A stretch of DNA of 32,000 bases, taken from contig JASBSB010000003.1 of assembly GCA_030149205.1 (NCBI GenBank), positions 360,001-392,000 of the forward strand, in the 5' to 3' direction. This DNA is from Candidatus Heimdallarchaeota archaeon. GTDB taxonomy: Archaea; Asgardarchaeota; Heimdallarchaeia; Heimdallarchaeales; Kariarchaeaceae. This document shows positions 2,740-11,578 of this stretch, in pieces (positions within the stretch are counted from its first letter, which is position 1; each line of letters starts with the position of its first letter). The notes under the pieces are model-generated. The model saw nothing but the letters and a program-made list of their open reading frames with translations. It searched no databases and had not been told where the DNA came from. The position numbers and the translations under genes were made by a program.

Positions 2740-3471
2740 ATGAAAACAAAGGTAAAATTAACTGAGCATCTTAAATTATCTGAACTCTATACACTCTTCC
2801 AAAATGTCCTTAGTGAACGTGACCAAAGATTGGTAAACGCTACCACCATTACTAACCATATCAGGGAGAGTTCTGTGTTATTTCTATTAATAACTTCAAG
2901 GGATCACTTTGATGATAGCTCTCAACAAGTTCAGTATTGGTTAGATAATATGTATACCATCCTGACCAAAAGATCTCTTGAAATGAAACATAACCCAGGA
3001 GATATGGCATTTCCTGGCGGGTCAAGAGAAGATCATGATAAATCAATTTATGAGACAGCTCAAAGGGAGACTATGGAAGAGGTAGGAATAGAGTCAGAGA
3101 AATACTCATTACTTGGATACTTAGATGAATTTAATTCATTGAACAAATATATTGTAAAGGTTTGCTTGGCAAAAATGATGGTTGACGTCCCTAAAGATAA
3201 TTTGAGAGATTTTTTGGAAAAAAATTATCAACCAAAATCAAATGAAAATATTTTTACATTAGCTTTACCAATAAGTTATTTTCTAAACCCTGAACACTAC
3301 TCAAATAGCCAATATAAGCTCGAAGGAGGAAGAATTGGTTATATTCGATATTTTGACCTATCTGAATATAAATCCGGGGAAACTGTATGGGGGTTAACCG
3401 CTTCAATGATTCGTAGGTTTATTGATACCTTCATTGAAGATCATCAGTTACCTATAGAACCAAATTCTTAA
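2740..3471 (+). CDS. Nudix hydrolase, CoA pyrophosphatase (NudL/PCD1-like)
   Basis: Nudix box GGSREDHDKSIYETAQRETMEEVGI preceded by LTKRS..MKHNPGDMAFPG; C-terminal VWGLTA. Confidence 0.88.
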   Translation: MKTKVKLTEHLKLSELYTLFQNVLSERDQRLVNATTITNHIRESSVLFLLITSRDHFDDSSQQVQYWLDNMYTILTKRSLEMKHNPGDMAFPGGSREDHDKSIYETAQRETMEEVGIESEKYSLLGYLDEFNSLNKYIVKVCLAKMMVDVPKDNLRDFLEKNYQPKSNENIFTLALPISYFLNPEHYSNSQYKLEGGRIGYIRYFDLSEYKSGETVWGLTASMIRRFIDTFIEDHQLPIEPNS

Positions 3472-4388
3472 GGTAACCAGTCATAAATCAGTTTTTCACC
3501 TGTTGACTTATACTCTTTAATAACATCTCTTATTTTTATTAAAATCAAATTTTGTTGCTCTGGAGTAAGAAGTTCATTCAATAGCTTTGTACCATCAACT
3601 ATTGATGCAACACCAGCACTTGATAAATTATACAGATCCTTTGTATCAAAGCTTTTAAGAGGATTGACAATCATTAACCGATTATAATTTTCGTCATGAG
3701 CAGACAAAATTTGGAAGCCTTCACGAACGTTGAAACTCTCTGGGGCTTTAATTAATTTTGTAAACGCATCAATTGCAGCTTTGTTTGGATGGAATACGTT
3801 TCGTGAGATAATTCCACGAATTAACGCTTGAATTGTATAGGCCTCTTCTATCAGTGAGAAGGGGATGATTGTAATTAATTCGTTGATTGTACTTCCATGA
3901 AGCTCCCCCCGAGTTATGGGAGGTGCATTTAAGAGCCGTTCAAGGTGATCCAGTGGTAAGAGAATAAGATTTATACTTCTTTGATTTGTGATATATTTTC
4001 CTGGATCCAAGCTGAATTCAGTGAAAAGAACCCCTGGTCCAGATATCAAGGCGAACTCTTTTCCTAGCTTATCAGAGACAATTTCTATATCATTATTCAA
4101 CATAACAATAGTATCTCTTGAAATATCAATAACTGGCCGATTTAAGTAAAATCCCATTGTCTGCTTCTCTAAGATTTTAGACCATGATGGGATGATTAAC
4201 AATGAGTTCAAATTCTTTTTTTCTATTTCTGCAAGCCTGACCTTTTTCAAATCAGAAGTAATATTCTTTATCTCCATATGGATCTGTTCAAGTAACTTTT
4301 CCTTATCTTGTACAAATTGTCTTTTGGGGAATTCATGGTCACTCATAAACATAAGTAGATCTCTTATTTTGAATTCTCCCAACTCCAT
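3468..4388 (-). CDS. Hypothetical protein (open frame extends upstream to 4496)
   Basis: 306-aa ORF with no recognised motif; 36 further in-frame sense codons upstream of the ATG. Confidence 0.75.
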   Translation of the reverse strand: MELGEFKIRDLLMFMSDHEFPKRQFVQDKEKLLEQIHMEIKNITSDLKKVRLAEIEKKNLNSLLIIPSWSKILEKQTMGFYLNRPVIDISRDTIVMLNNDIEIVSDKLGKEFALISGPGVLFTEFSLDPGKYITNQRSINLILLPLDHLERLLNAPPITRGELHGSTINELITIIPFSLIEEAYTIQALIRGIISRNVFHPNKAAIDAFTKLIKAPESFNVREGFQILSAHDENYNRLMIVNPLKSFDTKDLYNLSSAGVASIVDGTKLLNELLTPEQQNLILIKIRDVIKEYKSTGEKLIYDWLP

Positions 4389-4615
4389 TTCATCAAATCT
4401 TTCTGTAGAGTTGTAATAAACAAGTAATAACTCAAGAAGCTTCTTAGTTTTCTCGGCTTCTTGATATTCTTTTGATTGTTCGACATCTAAGGGAATTTAT
4501 TGCACCAACCTGTTTATTTACCAATTTAAAATTAGTTTTTTTTAATAAAAGCATTCCTTTAGAGTGGACTTAAATTGATAATCTTACAGTCTTTAGATGC
4601 AGAATTCATTCACCG

Positions 4616-5740
4616 GTGATAAAATTTAAGTCAGCCGAAATAGAACAAAGAAATGTGACAACTAATCTATTCATTCAGGCAGTATTATTATTTCCCTTCC
4701 TGTTAATGATAGTTAGTTTGGGATTAGCGTACCTCACTTATTACAAGATGCAATCTAAATTAAAATACCTTATATTAATTAGCAACTTGTTTTTTCTAAT
4801 TTGGGTTTTAATGCAATATTTACACTCAAATTTTTCTTATAACATGAATGTACAGTTGTTTCTGTTAAGGTCTCGTCTAATTTTCTTAGCATTTGCACTT
4901 TTTTTTATAACCATCTTTTATACTACAATTAATTCTGAAGATTCAATATCAAATCTCAACTTGCTCAGTAGTTTAATTCTGGGGATAAATGTGGGAGGAG
5001 CCTTAACAAATATTATTTATAGGGTTGACAATGGGACTCTGACTACCATTTTCTATTATGACCTTACATTGCTTCCCCAGGCAATTATATTTTTCATTTC
5101 TTTAAATCAATACTTAAGTTCCAGATACCAATTAGCGAAGGAGTTGAAATTTTCAAGTAAAATAACCCCAAAACTTCTGTTTCAACTAAAAATTGGGACA
5201 ATACTTTTTCTTCTATTAAGCCTGCTACTAATCCCCTTTGGTAGAGAATTCTTTATAACCCCATTTTATCTTTTAATTCCAAGTGTACTCGTTGTCTTAT
5301 CATATCTAACCTATATCGATCCATTAACAGCCACTCCAATTAAAAACCCATTAAACTTCATTGCACTATTTAATAGTAGAGAATTGATCTTATACCACGT
5401 CTTTAGCCAAGACCATGATATTGCAAAATTTGATTTTGGGGCTGTGATTATGGATATAACAAAGTTAATGCGAGAGATGGTGGCTACAGACAGTAATTTG
5501 ACTCACATTGCCACAATGAAAGAAGACATCTTTTTTGAATATTCTGGGTCAAAAACCCTGATATTGATCTGTCAAAAAAATTCACCCATACTTCACGAAA
5601 TTTTCCATAATTTTGCTGATGATGTTTTCTTATCTGACACAGAAACATATCCATTGTTTCTCCAAAAAATGAGCTATTATTTTAAATTCCCTTTAATCCC
5701 TACACCTCAAAATTTTTTTGGGTTAACTGAAACTGTTTAA
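4616..5740 (+). CDS. 7-TM membrane protein with C-terminal longin-like domain
   Basis: Seven hydrophobic segments in aa 18-234, then about 110 soluble aa with a beta-beta-alpha-beta-beta-beta-alpha-alpha pattern judged by eye. Confidence 0.6.
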   Translation: MIKFKSAEIEQRNVTTNLFIQAVLLFPFLLMIVSLGLAYLTYYKMQSKLKYLILISNLFFLIWVLMQYLHSNFSYNMNVQLFLLRSRLIFLAFALFFITIFYTTINSEDSISNLNLLSSLILGINVGGALTNIIYRVDNGTLTTIFYYDLTLLPQAIIFFISLNQYLSSRYQLAKELKFSSKITPKLLFQLKIGTILFLLLSLLLIPFGREFFITPFYLLIPSVLVVLSYLTYIDPLTATPIKNPLNFIALFNSRELILYHVFSQDHDIAKFDFGAVIMDITKLMREMVATDSNLTHIATMKEDIFFEYSGSKTLILICQKNSPILHEIFHNFADDVFLSDTETYPLFLQKMSYYFKFPLIPTPQNFFGLTETV

Positions 5741-7113
5741 AAATCATAACCAATGATTTTGTTCCTTTCCTTCACCCAATCCATCAAGTCTGTTGTGGAA
5801 CCTGGATAAGAACTATATTGTGTACGCAGTTTATTTGCAGTCTGAATTGCAGACCGGATTGGAAGTATGAGGTCATACCTTGGGAAAAGCTTGATTCCCT
5901 TAGATAGTAGGTCTAAAAGACCGAAATTTAGAGGATCTCCTCTAATCAATGTGTCTAGATCCTCATTAGTAAGAACTTCCCTCTTAAAGAGAAATTCAAC
6001 ACCAGATGCATGCACATCTTCTAAAAATTTTCTAAGAATGTATGCGGTTGCATGTTTTTCTCCAATTCCTTTATGGATTAGTTCATTATATCTCCAGAGC
6101 TTATCAGAGGTTCGACCTCCCTCCTTTAAAGCGTTAGATAAAGTTCTTCCTGCATACAATCCACCGTAAAGTGCTGGTCCATGACCCTCAGCTGAAGAGG
6201 GGTGAACAAGGCATGCTGCATCACCGACAAGTAAACCTCCATTAAAAACCAAGTTGTTGAAGGGAAGTCGAATAGGTATCTGCCCTCCTCCTGATTTGAG
6301 TACTTCATATGAACCTGGAGACACATATTTTGAAAGTGTTTCTTTATAAGCCTCTTTAAGCGAAGGCATATTTTGTTCTGATTTAAGCCACCCAATTCCG
6401 ACATTTAACTCTCCTTGACCTTTTGAGAAAATCCAAAAATACCCAGGAATTGGAATCTCATCATCATAAATTAGAACTATTTCGTTATGAAAATCATGAT
6501 CCTCTCCATCGTTCAATTTTATAATTTCTCGGTAAGTTGGCCAGATCATATCGTTCTCCAATTTGTACCATTCTTTTTGCCCAAAAAGGAAGTCGGTGGG
6601 AAGCAATTTTTTTATAGTTGCATATGCCCCAGATGCATCTACAACAAATTTTGCTCTAAACATTACTTCCTGACCCTTTACAAAAGCCGTTACTCCTGAA
6701 ACTGTGGACTCTTCAATAATCAATTTTCTTACTGGATGTTGCGGAAAAATTTGCACCCCCAATTCTTCACATTCATCCAATAATCTTTGACCATAAATTA
6801 ATCTATCTACCACATATCCAGGTGCAGTAAGGGTTGCCTTAGTTTCCAGACCCTGAGACGCAATACTCATTTTTTTAATAATATCTGAAACTTCGTCTCC
6901 TTCAGGTTCATTTATCCCTAGCTCTCTTTTAATTTCAAGTACTGAAGCTTTATCAAGAGCATCTCCACAAGTTTTATCACCGATTTGATTTCTTTTTTTC
7001 TTGTCTAAAATTGCAACCTTATACCCGGATTTAGCCACCGTATACGCAGTAATAGCTCCTGCTGGACCGCCTCCAACAACAATAACATCAAAATCAAAGT
7101 GATCTGCATTCAT
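5737..7113 (-). CDS. Geranylgeranyl reductase family flavoprotein (paralog B)
   Basis: VVGGGPAG FAD motif, GDKTCGDAL, DRLIYGQRL, VVDASG, PGYFWIF, LLVGDAA. Confidence 0.9.
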   Translation of the reverse strand: MNADHFDFDVIVVGGGPAGAITAYTVAKSGYKVAILDKKKRNQIGDKTCGDALDKASVLEIKRELGINEPEGDEVSDIIKKMSIASQGLETKATLTAPGYVVDRLIYGQRLLDECEELGVQIFPQHPVRKLIIEESTVSGVTAFVKGQEVMFRAKFVVDASGAYATIKKLLPTDFLFGQKEWYKLENDMIWPTYREIIKLNDGEDHDFHNEIVLIYDDEIPIPGYFWIFSKGQGELNVGIGWLKSEQNMPSLKEAYKETLSKYVSPGSYEVLKSGGGQIPIRLPFNNLVFNGGLLVGDAACLVHPSSAEGHGPALYGGLYAGRTLSNALKEGGRTSDKLWRYNELIHKGIGEKHATAYILRKFLEDVHASGVEFLFKREVLTNEDLDTLIRGDPLNFGLLDLLSKGIKLFPRYDLILPIRSAIQTANKLRTQYSSYPGSTTDLMDWVKERNKIIGYDF

Positions 7114-7225: not shown

Positions 7226-7948
7226 TTATTTAACAAATCTTGATAACAAAATTGCAGAAATTGCTGTGGCTGTGATTAGAATTATTACCCTATTTCCAGT
7301 TATCTGTTTACTCACCTTTTCGATTAATTCCTGGGCTTTGTCAAGCTTAGTATCCAATACATCAACCTTTTGATCAATGTTGGTTAAGACAACTCCCTGT
7401 TCCTCAAGTTGTCCAGCCATATTATCTAAGGAGCTCTTGATTAAACTTATAGATGCTGACATATCACTGATAGAGTTGGCAAAATTTTCCTCCATCCGTT
7501 TCAACCTCTCTTCAAACGTGGAGATGGCCTTTTCATCACTTAATCCGGGTTGTTCCTGCTTCAGAAGGTCGATATAAGCCTCTTCCATTGAAAGCAAATC
7601 TACATTATTCCCAGATGTTGCAAGTTCAATTTTAGATAATGAATCTTCTAATTTTGTCAAAGCAAACTTGTTAGACTCTATTTTCTTCCGTTGTCTTTCT
7701 TGATTTTGGACATCTGGAGCTTGTAGAAACTTGGGTAACTTGGATTGAACTTTTTCAAGGATTGACCTATCTTGCTCTAACTTCTCGTCATATTTGTCGT
7801 CAAATTCATCGAACATGTCCTTCATTCCTGAGACAAGGTCTTTTAACTCTGACACAGCCTCTTTTAGCAAAGCATCATTTGGCTCGTTTTTACCGAATTT
7901 CGTGGAAAGCTTTTCAAGCAGACTTTTCTTTTTAGTTTTTGAAGACAC
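7226..7948 (-). CDS. Tail-anchored Q-SNARE-like protein (helical N-terminus, SNARE motif, C-terminal TM)
   Basis: Hydrophobic layers at aa 160,163,167,170,174,177,181,[Q184],188,191,195,198,202,205,209,212; TM aa 221-235; GTG start with a TATA-like box 26 bp upstream. Confidence 0.8.
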   Translation of the reverse strand: MSSKTKKKSLLEKLSTKFGKNEPNDALLKEAVSELKDLVSGMKDMFDEFDDKYDEKLEQDRSILEKVQSKLPKFLQAPDVQNQERQRKKIESNKFALTKLEDSLSKIELATSGNNVDLLSMEEAYIDLLKQEQPGLSDEKAISTFEERLKRMEENFANSISDMSASISLIKSSLDNMAGQLEEQGVVLTNIDQKVDVLDTKLDKAQELIEKVSKQITGNRVIILITATAISAILLSRFVK

Positions 7949-7970: not shown

Positions 7971-7978
7971 AATATTAA
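7971..7978 (-). promoter_or_regulatory. Candidate TATA box for the SNARE-like gene (leaderless)
   Basis: Minus strand reads GGTTAATATT, with the box centred about 26 bp upstream of GTG 7948. Confidence 0.45.
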
Positions 7979-7994
7979 CCTATTCAAATCTGGA

Positions 7995-8324
7995 CTAACC
8001 CTTGACTAATTTTTCAACCTCACTGATTAATTTATCCGATTTAGCTCCAGTCCATCTTGTAAGTAGCTTACCATCTTGGAAAACCAAAAAGGTTGGAATT
8101 GACATCACCCTAAGGCTTTGAGCAGCAGATAAATTTTCATCTGTGTTGAGTTTTGCAAAGGTTATTTTATCTCCGTATTTTCCTGCGAGTTGTAGAAACA
8201 ATGGTTCAATTGCCTTGCAAGGAGAACACCATTCAGCCCAGGTGTCAATTAATACCAACTTATGATTTTTTAATTCATCTTCAAAATTTTCATCATTCAA
8301 AATTAGTAGTTTGTCACTAGCCAT
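7995..8324 (-). CDS. trxA: Thioredoxin (WCSPC)
   Basis: IDTWAEWCSPCK, FAKLNTDEN, VMSIPTFLVF; 109 aa. Confidence 0.93.
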   Translation of the reverse strand: MASDKLLILNDENFEDELKNHKLVLIDTWAEWCSPCKAIEPLFLQLAGKYGDKITFAKLNTDENLSAAQSLRVMSIPTFLVFQDGKLLTRWTGAKSDKLISEVEKLVKG

Positions 8325-8401: not shown

Positions 8402-8764
8402 TTATTGATTTTCAACTTCATTTGGGTCTATTTTAAGTAATTTTTCAAAAACATCTACAAATGCAGGTTTAGGGTATGCTCCGACAAACCTTCCGACAGG
8501 TTTACCTTCCTTAAATGCCCAAAAAGTTGGGATACTTGTTGCGCCATATTTTGCGGCGATTTGCGGGTTTTCATCAACATTTAATTTTCCAACCCAGATC
8601 TGTCCTTTGTATTTTTCCGCAAGTTCTTCCAAGATTGGGGCAACCATTTGACATGGACGACACCATACTGCCCAGAAATCAACTAATAAGATAGGAGCAT
8701 CTTTGAGTACCTGATCAAAATTTTCGTCTGATAAAACCACTGGTTTGCTTGTCTCTTCTAACAT
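8402..8764 (-). CDS. trxA: Thioredoxin (WCRPC)
   Basis: VDFWAVWCRPCQ, KLNVDENP, TSIPTF; GAGGAG SD upstream. Confidence 0.93.
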   Translation of the reverse strand: MLEETSKPVVLSDENFDQVLKDAPILLVDFWAVWCRPCQMVAPILEELAEKYKGQIWVGKLNVDENPQIAAKYGATSIPTFWAFKEGKPVGRFVGAYPKPAFVDVFEKLLKIDPNEVENQ

Positions 8765-8879: not shown

Positions 8880-10235
8880 TTAATCAAATGGAACAAGTCG
8901 TTTACGCTTATTTAACCATCCAATGAAATTATCAGGGGAATCTGGATACTCTCTATAATGTTTGTCCGTTTCCTCAATTAAGGCAATTGTTTTTCTAAGG
9001 TTTAGCAGGATCGAAACTCGTGGAAGGGTTTTTAGGACTTTTAAAATTTTGTTCCAAAAGGTTAGAGTAAAATCTCTGGTTTGAAAAATTTCAATTAGTT
9101 CTTCTTCTGAAATAATCTTCCTCCTAAAAAGAAAGCTAAATCCCGATGGCCCTAACCATTTAATAAATTGAAGTGCCTGATAACTCATTGCATGGGTACT
9201 TCCTGGATATTTCATCACTTCTTTATTGTAACTCCATAGGTCTGCCTTTCTGAAACTTTGTTTTTTCATCGCGTCTAAAACCGCCTTACCAGCAAGATAT
9301 CCAGAAATTAAAGACGGGCCATGACCTTCAGCAGTTGTTGGATCAACCATACAACCCGCCTCCCCAACCAGTAATGCCCCATTAAATACGAGAGAGTCAA
9401 ACGGTGGTCGAATAGGGATCTGCCCTCCACCTGAGTCTAATACCTCATACGTCTTTGGGTCTACCAAAGGATCAAGAACCTCGTGATATATTTGTTTTAG
9501 ACTTTTGTTGTCAGGGTAAGGAATGTTTTTAGGCCAGGTAACCCCAATGTTCAGTTGTTTTGAACCATCTGTGAATATCCAAGCGTATCCTGGAATTGGA
9601 ATAGAATCATGGTACAAAAGAAGAATCTCATTTTTATAGCTATGCTCTTGATCTAACCTTACAATCTCTCTATAAGTTGCAACTGTATTATCATTTGAGA
9701 CCGAATAGTCAACTCCCTGTTTCAATTCACCTCTGATCAATTTCCTTACAGTGCCAACATACCCAGATGCATCTATAACCACATTAGATTTAAGTTCCTG
9801 TAGTTCTCCATCTTTATGAAATTTGACACCAACAATCTGATCACCCTCCCATATGAGGTCTCTTACTTTGGCACCTCCAATAATCTCTGTTCCTTTAGAT
9901 TCAGCAACTTTTAGAAGGCGTTGACCATAATTTAATCGGTGTACAATGTATCCTGGAGCGTTTGCTGTCATTTTATTCTGTAGGGACTGTGAAGCAAACG
10001 TGATATATTCGATAGGAGATGGGAGCTCTGAACCTGAGGGATATTCAATACCAAATTTCTCCTTCAGTAGGTCTGGAGCGATATGGTCTAAAGCATCGCC
10101 ACAACTCTTGTTTCCAATTTTTTCTCTTGATTTTTTGTCTAGGATTACTACCCTGTAACCAGCATCAGCAATTGTTATTGCACTAATCACACCCGATGGG
10201 CCCCCACCGACTACGATTGCATCTGCCCTGTCCAT
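8880..10235 (-). CDS. Geranylgeranyl reductase family flavoprotein (paralog A)
   Basis: VVGGGPSG, GNKSCGDAL, RLNYGQRL, VIDASG, PGYAWIF, LLVGEAG; colinear with 5737-7113. Confidence 0.9.
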   Translation of the reverse strand: MDRADAIVVGGGPSGVISAITIADAGYRVVILDKKSREKIGNKSCGDALDHIAPDLLKEKFGIEYPSGSELPSPIEYITFASQSLQNKMTANAPGYIVHRLNYGQRLLKVAESKGTEIIGGAKVRDLIWEGDQIVGVKFHKDGELQELKSNVVIDASGYVGTVRKLIRGELKQGVDYSVSNDNTVATYREIVRLDQEHSYKNEILLLYHDSIPIPGYAWIFTDGSKQLNIGVTWPKNIPYPDNKSLKQIYHEVLDPLVDPKTYEVLDSGGGQIPIRPPFDSLVFNGALLVGEAGCMVDPTTAEGHGPSLISGYLAGKAVLDAMKKQSFRKADLWSYNKEVMKYPGSTHAMSYQALQFIKWLGPSGFSFLFRRKIISEEELIEIFQTRDFTLTFWNKILKVLKTLPRVSILLNLRKTIALIEETDKHYREYPDSPDNFIGWLNKRKRLVPFD

Positions 10236-10387: not shown

Positions 10388-11578
10388 ATGGAAGAAATTA
10401 AAATAACGAAATTTTATGGGACTAACTGGTGTTCAGATTGTAAAAGAGCTAAAACATTCCTAGGAGAGCAAAGAATCCCATATAATTGGGTTAATATCGA
10501 AGAAGACGAAGAAGCTGCACAGTTTGTTATGAAAGTAAATGATGGAAAGAAAAAAATCCCTACAATTGTATTTTCTGATGGTTCAGTATTAGTTGAGCCT
10601 TCAAATGCAGAGTTGGCTGAAAAACTAGGGATTTCCTCTGATTTAGGTCATGATTTTCATGATATCATTATTGTGGGAGGCGGCCCTGCAGGATTAACAG
10701 CTGGTTTATATGCAGCAAGAGATGGGTATGATGTTGTAATAATTGAAAAAGGGGCATTAGGAGGGCAGGCTGGATTTACCGAGCGATTAGACAATTACCC
10801 TGGTTTTCCAGATGGGATCTCAGGAAGTGATCTTGTCTCAAGAATCATAAGTCAAGTTGAAAGATACAATGTTGAGTTTCTTAGAGCCACTGAGATTAAA
10901 AACGTTAAAAAGGAAAACAATTATTTCATATTGACGACAAACTCTGGAACTGAAATATCTTCCACTGTGGTTCTCATTGCCACTGGATCCAAGTATAAAA
11001 AATTAGGTATTCCAGGTGAATCAGAATTAATTGGCTACAAGATCCATTTTTGTGCAACATGTGATTTCATCTGGTACAAAGGCAAGGAAGTCATCGTGAT
11101 TGGAGGGGGAAATTCTGCTTTCGAAGAATCACTTTTTCTCTCAAGACACCTCAAGAAAGTCACAATTCTGGTAAGAGGTGAGACCCCAAAAGCTTCTCCT
11201 ATACTCCAAGACAAAGTTAAAAAAACATCAAATATTGAAGTGCTCACTAACACAGTAGCAACTGAATTTCTTGTTGGGGAGAAAAAAGAGTTAAGCGGTG
11301 TTAAAATAAAGACTGTCGACACAAATGAGGAAGCAGTTCTGAACCCTGATGGTGTCTTTCTTTTTATTGGGTTATCTCCCAACTCTGAAATTGTCAAAGA
11401 CATAGTTGAAACTAAGGAAGGTGGGTTCATTTATACTGAGTCAAACCTTGAATCAAAAACATCAGGCTTGTTCGCTGCTGGTGATGTGCGTTATACTTCA
11501 ACCAAGCAAGCGGTGTCTGCTATGGGTGAGGGTGCAGCAGCAGCCCTTCACATTAGAGAATATCTCAGAGAACAATAA
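10388..11578 (+). CDS. trxB: Glutaredoxin/NrdH-like domain fused to thioredoxin-disulfide reductase
   Basis: N-terminal YGTNWCSDCKRAK...IPTIVF; then IVGGGPAG, CATCD, VIGGGNSA, FAAGDV. Confidence 0.9.
   Translation: MEEIKITKFYGTNWCSDCKRAKTFLGEQRIPYNWVNIEEDEEAAQFVMKVNDGKKKIPTIVFSDGSVLVEPSNAELAEKLGISSDLGHDFHDIIIVGGGPAGLTAGLYAARDGYDVVIIEKGALGGQAGFTERLDNYPGFPDGISGSDLVSRIISQVERYNVEFLRATEIKNVKKENNYFILTTNSGTEISSTVVLIATGSKYKKLGIPGESELIGYKIHFCATCDFIWYKGKEVIVIGGGNSAFEESLFLSRHLKKVTILVRGETPKASPILQDKVKKTSNIEVLTNTVATEFLVGEKKELSGVKIKTVDTNEEAVLNPDGVFLFIGLSPNSEIVKDIVETKEGGFIYTESNLESKTSGLFAAGDVRYTSTKQAVSAMGEGAAAALHIREYLREQ

Follow-up and report, generated by a model that had tools for sequence, protein, structure and literature searches.

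The window analysed here is a stretch of 32,000 nucleotides from a Candidatus Heimdallarchaeota archaeon of the Kariarchaeaceae (assembly GCA_030149205.1, contig JASBSB010000003.1, positions 360,001 to 392,000), and the element of interest in it is a gene for a tail-anchored protein with a SNARE motif, flanked by a geranylgeranyl-reductase-like gene and a thioredoxin gene (Table 1). A preliminary description, made from the letters alone, had proposed the reading frame, the motif layers and their coordinates, and a scripted check reproduced every one of them. Layers -7 to -1 are I160, M163, I167, I170, L174, M177 and L181, layer 0 is Q184 inside LEEQG, as that description had it, and layers +1 to +8 are L188, I191, V195, L198, L202, A205, I209 and V212. 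All 15 non-zero layers are hydrophobic.

Table 1. Features of the SNARE-like gene and of its neighbours; positions are those of the window, aa, amino acids.
Feature	Position	Strand	Basis or remark
Tail-anchored SNARE-like gene, 240 aa	7226..7948	(-)	GTG start 7946-7948, stop (TAA) 7226-7228; from the list of open reading frames and the translation
N-terminal helical domain, aa 22-157	7478..7885	(-)	AlphaFold2 model; predicted helices 22-60, 78-112, 118-132, 138-157
SNARE motif, aa 160-212, layers -7 to +8	7313..7471	(-)	Residues verified; conserved layers; syntaxin-6 alignment; modelled tetramer interface
Layer-0 glutamine Q184, within DNMAGQL-x-EQG	7397..7399	(-)	Invariance in homologues; syntaxin-6 alignment; modelled 184-184 contact
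Short linker, aa 213-220, SKQITGNR	7289..7312	(-)	Alignment of homologues
Single C-terminal transmembrane segment, aa 221-239, then one Lys (tail anchor)	7232..7288	(-)	Hydropathy scan
TATA-box-like TTAATATT	7971..7978	(-)	Spacer of 46 nt between the thioredoxin gene and the SNARE-like gene; centre ~26 nt before the GTG
Thioredoxin gene	7995-8324	(-)	Flanks the SNARE-like gene
Geranylgeranyl-reductase-like gene	5737-7113	(-)	Flanks the SNARE-like gene
Second thioredoxin	8402-8764	(-)	Paralogue, 42% identical to the first
Second geranylgeranyl-reductase-like gene	8880-10235	(-)	Paralogue, 41% identical to the first
Glutaredoxin-thioredoxin-reductase fusion	10388-11578	(+)	Divergently transcribed
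374-aa multi-transmembrane (7-TM) protein	4616-5740	(+)	Converges on the reductase gene
~345-aa Asgard protein	3468-4388	(-)	Homology runs past the TAA to ~4505

The perfect Q/R-centred pattern of 16 layers arose in 0 of 20,000 shuffles of residues 1-220. Among the 4,622 six-frame open reading frames (ORFs) of at least 70 amino acids in the genome it is found in the SNARE-like ORF alone, and every one of the seven ORFs that miss it by one layer is a segment of a polytopic membrane protein. Together the shuffles and the single perfect ORF place the pattern beyond chance. The hydrophobicity of the 16 layers is also kept across 38 homologues, down to ~20% identity, with glutamine at layer 0 in 35 of the 38 and histidine in three. 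Histidine occurs there (as L-x-x-H-G) in homologues P0027, P0032 and P0037. The 21 close homologues show no change in DNMAGQL-x-EQG, Q184, A205 (layer +6), S213, T217 or R220, and almost none in G218 and N219 of the linker.

A Kyte-Doolittle scan finds a sole hydrophobic segment, at residues ~221-239 of 240 (mean of the best 19-residue window 2.26), and none in the N-terminus, which is lysine-rich and hydrophilic. Since the segment ends one residue from the C-terminus and nothing similar precedes it, the protein is tail-anchored and without a signal peptide. The preliminary description had placed a single C-terminal transmembrane segment at residues 221-235, and only its extent has to be revised; the short basic linker and the lack of a signal peptide that it proposed are borne out by sequence and hydropathy. 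The GTG start is supported in that the conserved residues K8, K17 and D25 would be lost if translation began at codon 27, 32 or 42, the next possible starts.

Homologues were collected in a word-indexed search of 5.8 billion proteins and in an exhaustive HMMER search of 1.84 billion cluster representatives. The former returned 21 full-length homologues of 239-271 amino acids, 41-52% identical to the window protein, the named ones labelled Candidatus Heimdallarchaeota, and included a homologue of a published family at E = 7.7e-57; the latter added more distant members, to ~20% identity. The source names are Heimdallarchaeota, Kariarchaeaceae or Hodarchaeales, and a few members of one cluster are labelled Promethearchaeota or Thorarchaeota. 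The published family is that of the 'Heimdallarchaeota prototypic SNAREs' (HPS) described by Neveu, Khalifeh, Salamin & Fasshauer (bioRxiv 10.1101/810531; Curr Biol 2020). By exact look-up, homologue P0015 is OLS22354.1 (HeimC2_29900, archaeon LC_2), the HPS2 of these authors, and RMG36020.1, the fourth protein in their paper, corresponds to P0052, which belongs to the P0004 cluster. The window protein shares 45% identity with HPS2 over 231 amino acids (E = 3e-73) and ~50% with the cluster that holds RMG36020.1. A maximum-likelihood tree of 36 family members pairs it with the RMG36020.1 group as its sister (91/89), and the two together fall within a clade, supported at 99/99, that contains HPS2.

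The window protein is therefore a member of the HPS family, and the precedent for SNARE-like proteins in Heimdallarchaeota that the preliminary description had cited holds. It resembles HPS2 and RMG36020.1 from end to end, with a length of 240 as against 241-242 amino acids, the same architecture, identical DNMAGQL-x-EQG, layer-0 glutamine, linker TGNR and tail anchor, and one copy per genome; it differs from them in a distinct and fairly long-branched sequence. The family was already known, having been published in 2019/2020, with ~50 members catalogued and a crystal structure in October 2026, and the window copy is a divergent new member of it, all public proteins being at most 52% identical to it. 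The SNARE proteins of three genomes of the same genus (G053-G055) are just 47-52% identical to that of the window, whose terminal branch is long (0.6). This reflects either fast evolution of the gene here or a very broad genus.

The genome to which the window belongs (3.31 Mb in 12 contigs, 93.5% complete) has one copy of the gene. The next best match of a hidden Markov model (HMM) of the motif alone has E = 0.21, and the 83 raw tail-anchored-like ORFs of the genome yielded no further match to the SNARE motif. A profile of the family run over 400 genomes of the phylum found 37 positive genomes besides the window's own, all of the same class and, with the exception of one tandem pair, with a single gene each. 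By taxonomic family the gene is in 10/11 genomes of f1, 1/1 of f2, 3/3 of f4, 20/22 of f5 and 2/2 of f6, in sum 36 of the 39 genomes of five families. This distribution and copy number agree with those of Bentahar et al. 2026 (10.64898/2026.10.19.760048), who count ~50 members, in Heimdallarchaeia only, usually one per genome and with two duplications. The tandem pair lies in one genome (G078:C473:2996-3688 and 3760-4449, both on the minus strand) and is a rare duplication of a usually single-copy gene.

One family of the same order as the window genome stands apart. In f3 (genomes G011-G041) the first, narrow profile found the gene in 0 of 31 genomes, two single-contig genomes included, and a wider profile of 33 sequences returned only weak matches, which are C-terminal coiled coils of small GTPases; as SNARE-like genes these were rejected. 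In each of the other sampled families of the class in which the gene occurs, nearly all genomes carry it. The absence in f3 is likely to reflect lineage-specific loss or extreme divergence. The GTPases themselves (L042 859-1599, plus strand, and L043 1498-2259, minus strand) are of ~250 amino acids, start with a Rab/Arf-like N-terminus, end in a coiled coil and are without a membrane anchor; each adjoins a gene for a zinc-ribbon multi-transmembrane protein.

Similarity to eukaryotic SNAREs was sought by several routes. In Pfam, residues 187-234 of the window protein align with positions 2-49 of the 53 of the SNARE model (PF05739) at 15.6 bits (E = 0.016), a match that is sub-threshold and extends into the transmembrane segment. 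The 21 family members behave alike, their matches being all sub-threshold: SNARE in 16 (best E = 1.6e-5), V-SNARE_C in 14 and Sec20 in 10. NCBIfam gave far-sub-threshold matches to coiled coils only, for example SMC and Rad50. Of the entries in the Protein Data Bank (PDB), the one that matches best is the motif of syntaxin-6, a Qc SNARE, in the early-endosomal complex (2NPS_D). This match is ungapped over 59 residues at ~27% identity, places Gln184 on the glutamine of EEQ, and has E = 1.5e-3 when searched with the single sequence and 3e-4 with the family profile; the HPS1 crystal structure was not among the entries of the copy searched. Syntaxin-6 was also the nearest human SNARE, at 20-28%, in the work of Neveu et al. 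(10.1101/810531), and the same chain 2NPS_D served Bentahar et al. for molecular replacement (10.64898/2026.10.19.760048). Protein language-model comparison gave clusters of neighbours of which all the named ones are SNARE families (SNARE, V-SNARE, V-SNARE_C, STX6_10_61_N, Sec20 and Use1), with a score of 0.91 and 190 shared features over residues 150-240, which are leads rather than proof. Judged from these comparisons, the likeness to eukaryotic SNAREs is weak, yet coherent and in register. Syntaxin-6 itself differs in that it acts in a heteromeric QabcR bundle with an arginine-containing layer 0, whereas the archaeal protein is the sole SNARE-like gene product and is expected to be homomeric.

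A model of four copies of residues 150-218, run three times, predicts that the motif forms a parallel homotetrameric four-helix bundle, one of the checks that the preliminary description had called for. The homotetramer scores 0.77, the best control 0.51; 21 of 30 proteins solved as one-chain pairs reach the mark applied to such scores, as against 0 of 23 proteins with a single-chain structure, counts that are no more than a rough guide for four copies. All contacts (100%) are common to the runs, with a predicted local distance difference test (pLDDT) value of at least 83 for the partner chains, and the modelled interface includes all 16 named layer residues. The contacts 170-170, 184-184, 195-195 and 202-202 join like residues, so that the modelled bundle is parallel and in register. 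This agrees with experiments on HPS1 (PWI47941.1, archaeon B3-JM-08) by Bentahar, Yadav, Hacisuleyman & Fasshauer (bioRxiv 10.64898/2026.10.19.760048), in which the protein was a homotetramer by size-exclusion chromatography with multi-angle light scattering, unfolded above 90 C, was targeted to the endoplasmic reticulum in human cells, and crystallised to give a structure at 2.4 A that has 16 layers, layer 0 being made up of four Gln183. HPS1 and HPS2 also bind neuronal SNAREs in vitro (10.1101/810531). HPS1 was not recognised among the proteins retrieved here; it and the window protein are alike in their 16 layers from -7 to +8 and in the glutamine of layer 0 (Q183 in HPS1, Q184 here), and the parallel, in-register homotetramer that is seen in the HPS1 crystal is predicted by the model for the window protein.

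The N-terminal domain was modelled by AlphaFold2 from an alignment of 33 sequences (mean pLDDT 78.7, and above 90 for residues 30-100). The model has a confident antiparallel hairpin of the first two helices, followed by a less confident, broken third helix that heads towards the SNARE motif; L35, P72 and E146 in this domain are invariant or nearly so. It possibly corresponds to an Habc-like N-terminal bundle, as the authors of the family suggest. A Foldseek search of the domain model against the PDB gave no significant match, and a wide VIA-align search gave generic helical hairpins only (SMC, CHMP4B, designed proteins) at Z ~10, which is below the meaningful level for helical proteins. The full-length model (pLDDT 65) likewise had no PDB match at E<=0.001, its top rows being designed helical bundles, spectrin, BAR domains and Vipp1. 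In AlphaFold-DB Swiss-Prot, syntaxin-7, -12 and -1A, GOS11 and NPSN13 were among the top rows, at E values of 0.45-1.8 and TM-scores of ~0.2, which are not significant.

A search of the genome for the machinery that serves SNAREs in eukaryotes, as the preliminary description had proposed, was answered in part. A gene for a Get3/ArsA homologue lies elsewhere on the same contig (E = 3.9e-80). SM, SNAP and R-SNARE partners did not appear: the search for Sec1, of the SM type, had no match, which is weak evidence of absence since its positive control also matched nowhere, and the searches for synaptobrevin and SNAP returned sub-threshold noise only, as in control genomes. A second ORF with a SNARE motif was not found in the genome, and with a single such gene Qb, Qc or R partners would be lacking.

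Taken as a whole, the evidence is best explained, and we think very probably so, if the protein is an HPS orthologue, a cytoplasm-facing helical protein held in the membrane by its C-terminal tail anchor. The anchor would be inserted post-translationally, plausibly by the Get3/ArsA homologue. Going by the model and by the experiments on the orthologue, four SNARE motifs would zip together as a highly stable homotetramer, parallel and in register, with four Gln184 side chains as the central polar layer of the bundle. If the helices came from two apposed membranes, bundling would draw the membranes together, and the outcome may be a primitive device for homotypic fusion or membrane remodelling. 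A regulatory role in assembly is possible for the N-terminal helical domain, as is recycling of the complex by a Cdc48-type AAA ATPase.

Several points weigh against this interpretation. To our knowledge, fusion activity, native localisation and a partner are known for no member of the family, and fusion has been shown in no archaeon. The homotetramer is without a built-in preference for trans over cis assembly, and no SM, SNAP or R-SNARE gene was found in the window genome at its completeness of 93.5%. The Pfam SNARE score lies well under the gathering cut-off of 26.8, generic coiled-coil families of Pfam score similarly to SNARE, and the fold searches with the monomer yielded no significant match. 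A resemblance to SNARE bundles of solved structure may have let the complex prediction pass, and the score of one control was as high as 0.51. Finally, murine NSF fails to disassemble the HPS complex (10.64898/2026.10.19.760048).

The protein could instead be a generic tail-anchored coiled coil, convergent on SNAREs and non-homologous to them, with some other role in membrane scaffolding or tethering. Such an origin would sit well with a similarity to eukaryotic SNAREs that is marginal (E between 1e-3 and 1e-5), with Pfam matches that are all below their cut-offs and share their score range with DUF7201, TolA_bind_tri, DUF1664, SMC and other coiled-coil families, with structure searches that return generic helical proteins, and with a fusion activity that is not demonstrated. 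Convergence does not account well for matches that are in register, with glutamine on glutamine and the same spacing from motif to transmembrane segment, nor for the fact that SNARE families are the common theme across independent methods. The 16-layer length, the central polar layer and the short linker are kept throughout the family, and the orthologue has a crystal structure and a core volume like those of eukaryotic SNARE bundles, together with binding to neuronal SNAREs (10.1101/810531; 10.64898/2026.10.19.760048). We therefore consider convergence improbable.

The preliminary description had gone further and called the protein a full-architecture Qa-like SNARE. A tail-anchored SNARE-like Q-protein it is; the Qa or syntaxin label is not supported. 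A genuine Qa SNARE that carried an Habc domain and belonged to a heteromeric QabcR set would share with syntaxin-1A several traits that are also seen here: the heptad spacing, a layer-0 glutamine followed by glycine, the alanine at +6 that is invariant among the 21 close homologues, the tail anchor, and the order of helical N-terminal region, SNARE motif and transmembrane segment. Syntaxin-7, -12 and -1A moreover fill many of the top Swiss-Prot rows, at the non-significant values given above. On the other side, neither the Syntaxin nor the Syntaxin_2 N-terminal family turns up in the list of 20 Pfam families at E<=10, the N-domain of STX6 has no Pfam match in the protein either, and the N-terminal domain is confidently modelled as a hairpin only. 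The protein differs from syntaxin-1A also in being without a long linker between N-domain and motif, and no SM gene was found in its genome. The best solved match of the motif is the Qc SNARE syntaxin-6, and the nearest named clusters (V-SNARE, V-SNARE_C, STX6_10_61_N, Sec20 and Use1) are of Qb and Qc type, so that the motif is not found to be nearer to Qa. Published trees place the Heimdall SNARE clade outside Qa, Qb, Qc and R alike (10.1101/810531; 10.64898/2026.10.19.760048). A true Qa SNARE is accordingly very unlikely.

A eukaryotic or viral SNARE gene, present by contamination or recent horizontal transfer, would recall the virus-labelled SNARE-like proteins among the nearest language-model clusters and the eukaryotic SNAREs acquired by Legionellales (10.1101/810531), and is hardly credible for a gene that lies in mid-contig (~474 kb) among archaeal-type genes at a local guanine-cytosine (GC) content of 0.32-0.37, that occurs one per genome in 36 of 39 genomes from five families of one archaeal class with a tree that follows the groups, and that has at most ~27% identity to any eukaryotic SNARE, over the motif.

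Around the HPS gene, the paralogous pairs of reductase-like and thioredoxin genes and the reductase fusion give the window surroundings the look of a local cluster for redox and lipid saturation with old duplications. A link of the reductase, thioredoxin and 7-TM genes to the SNARE-like gene was considered and rejected: in 11 related loci a reductase fragment was found once, and a thioredoxin or 7-TM gene in none. The 374-residue 7-TM protein has no Pfam or NCBIfam match, the longin family included. Upstream of the gene, TTAATATT resembles a TATA box and suggests that the gene may have its own promoter and a leaderless mRNA; the box is weak evidence, since AT-rich motifs are frequent at 35% GC. 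A scan for sigma-70 promoters gave counts at chance level only, with a model that is not applicable to archaea. Of the data sets listed as containing the stretch none is of RNA; the only one that contains it in full is a sediment metagenome, which may be the source of the assembly.

The gene for the ~345-residue Asgard protein directly adjoins the SNARE gene in 10 of the 12 loci of f1 and f4, in three orientations. The window differs here from the relatives of the HPS2 and RMG36020.1 type, as the reductase and 7-TM genes lie between the two, and its copy has an in-frame TAA, so that it apparently lacks the first ~35 residues. The protein had no match in Pfam, NCBIfam, PDB or Atlas. In 12 loci of f5 (Hod-type) the gene is not within 6 kb of the SNARE gene, and it is present in 195 of the 400 genomes of the phylum, including 30 of the 31 of the SNARE-less family and members of other classes. 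In another class the homologue sits within frames of 630-690 amino acids. Because its distribution fails to track that of the SNARE, and because it is distant in f5, a functional link is only a low-probability lead. It is accordingly unlikely that the ~345-residue protein is a partner or regulator of the SNARE, for example an SM-like assembly chaperone, whose pairing has been split here by a 2.8-kb insertion.

What the window copy adds is a divergent sequence from a fairly contiguous genome of 12 contigs. It confirms the rules of the family, that is, 16 layers, a centre of glutamine or histidine, a tail anchor and one gene per genome, and it opens no new question. The points worth keeping are the apparent absence of the SNARE from one sister family (0 of 31 genomes) and the recurrent neighbour gene of ~345 residues. 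Nearly every fusion of membranes inside eukaryotic cells is driven by SNAREs, and where SNAREs came from is one part of the question of eukaryogenesis. For the ancestor of the QabcR set there is at present no better candidate than a SNARE-like protein that is single-copy and homomeric and belongs to the archaeal sister group of eukaryotes; orthologues of the window protein have already served to make this point, both by biochemistry and by structure.

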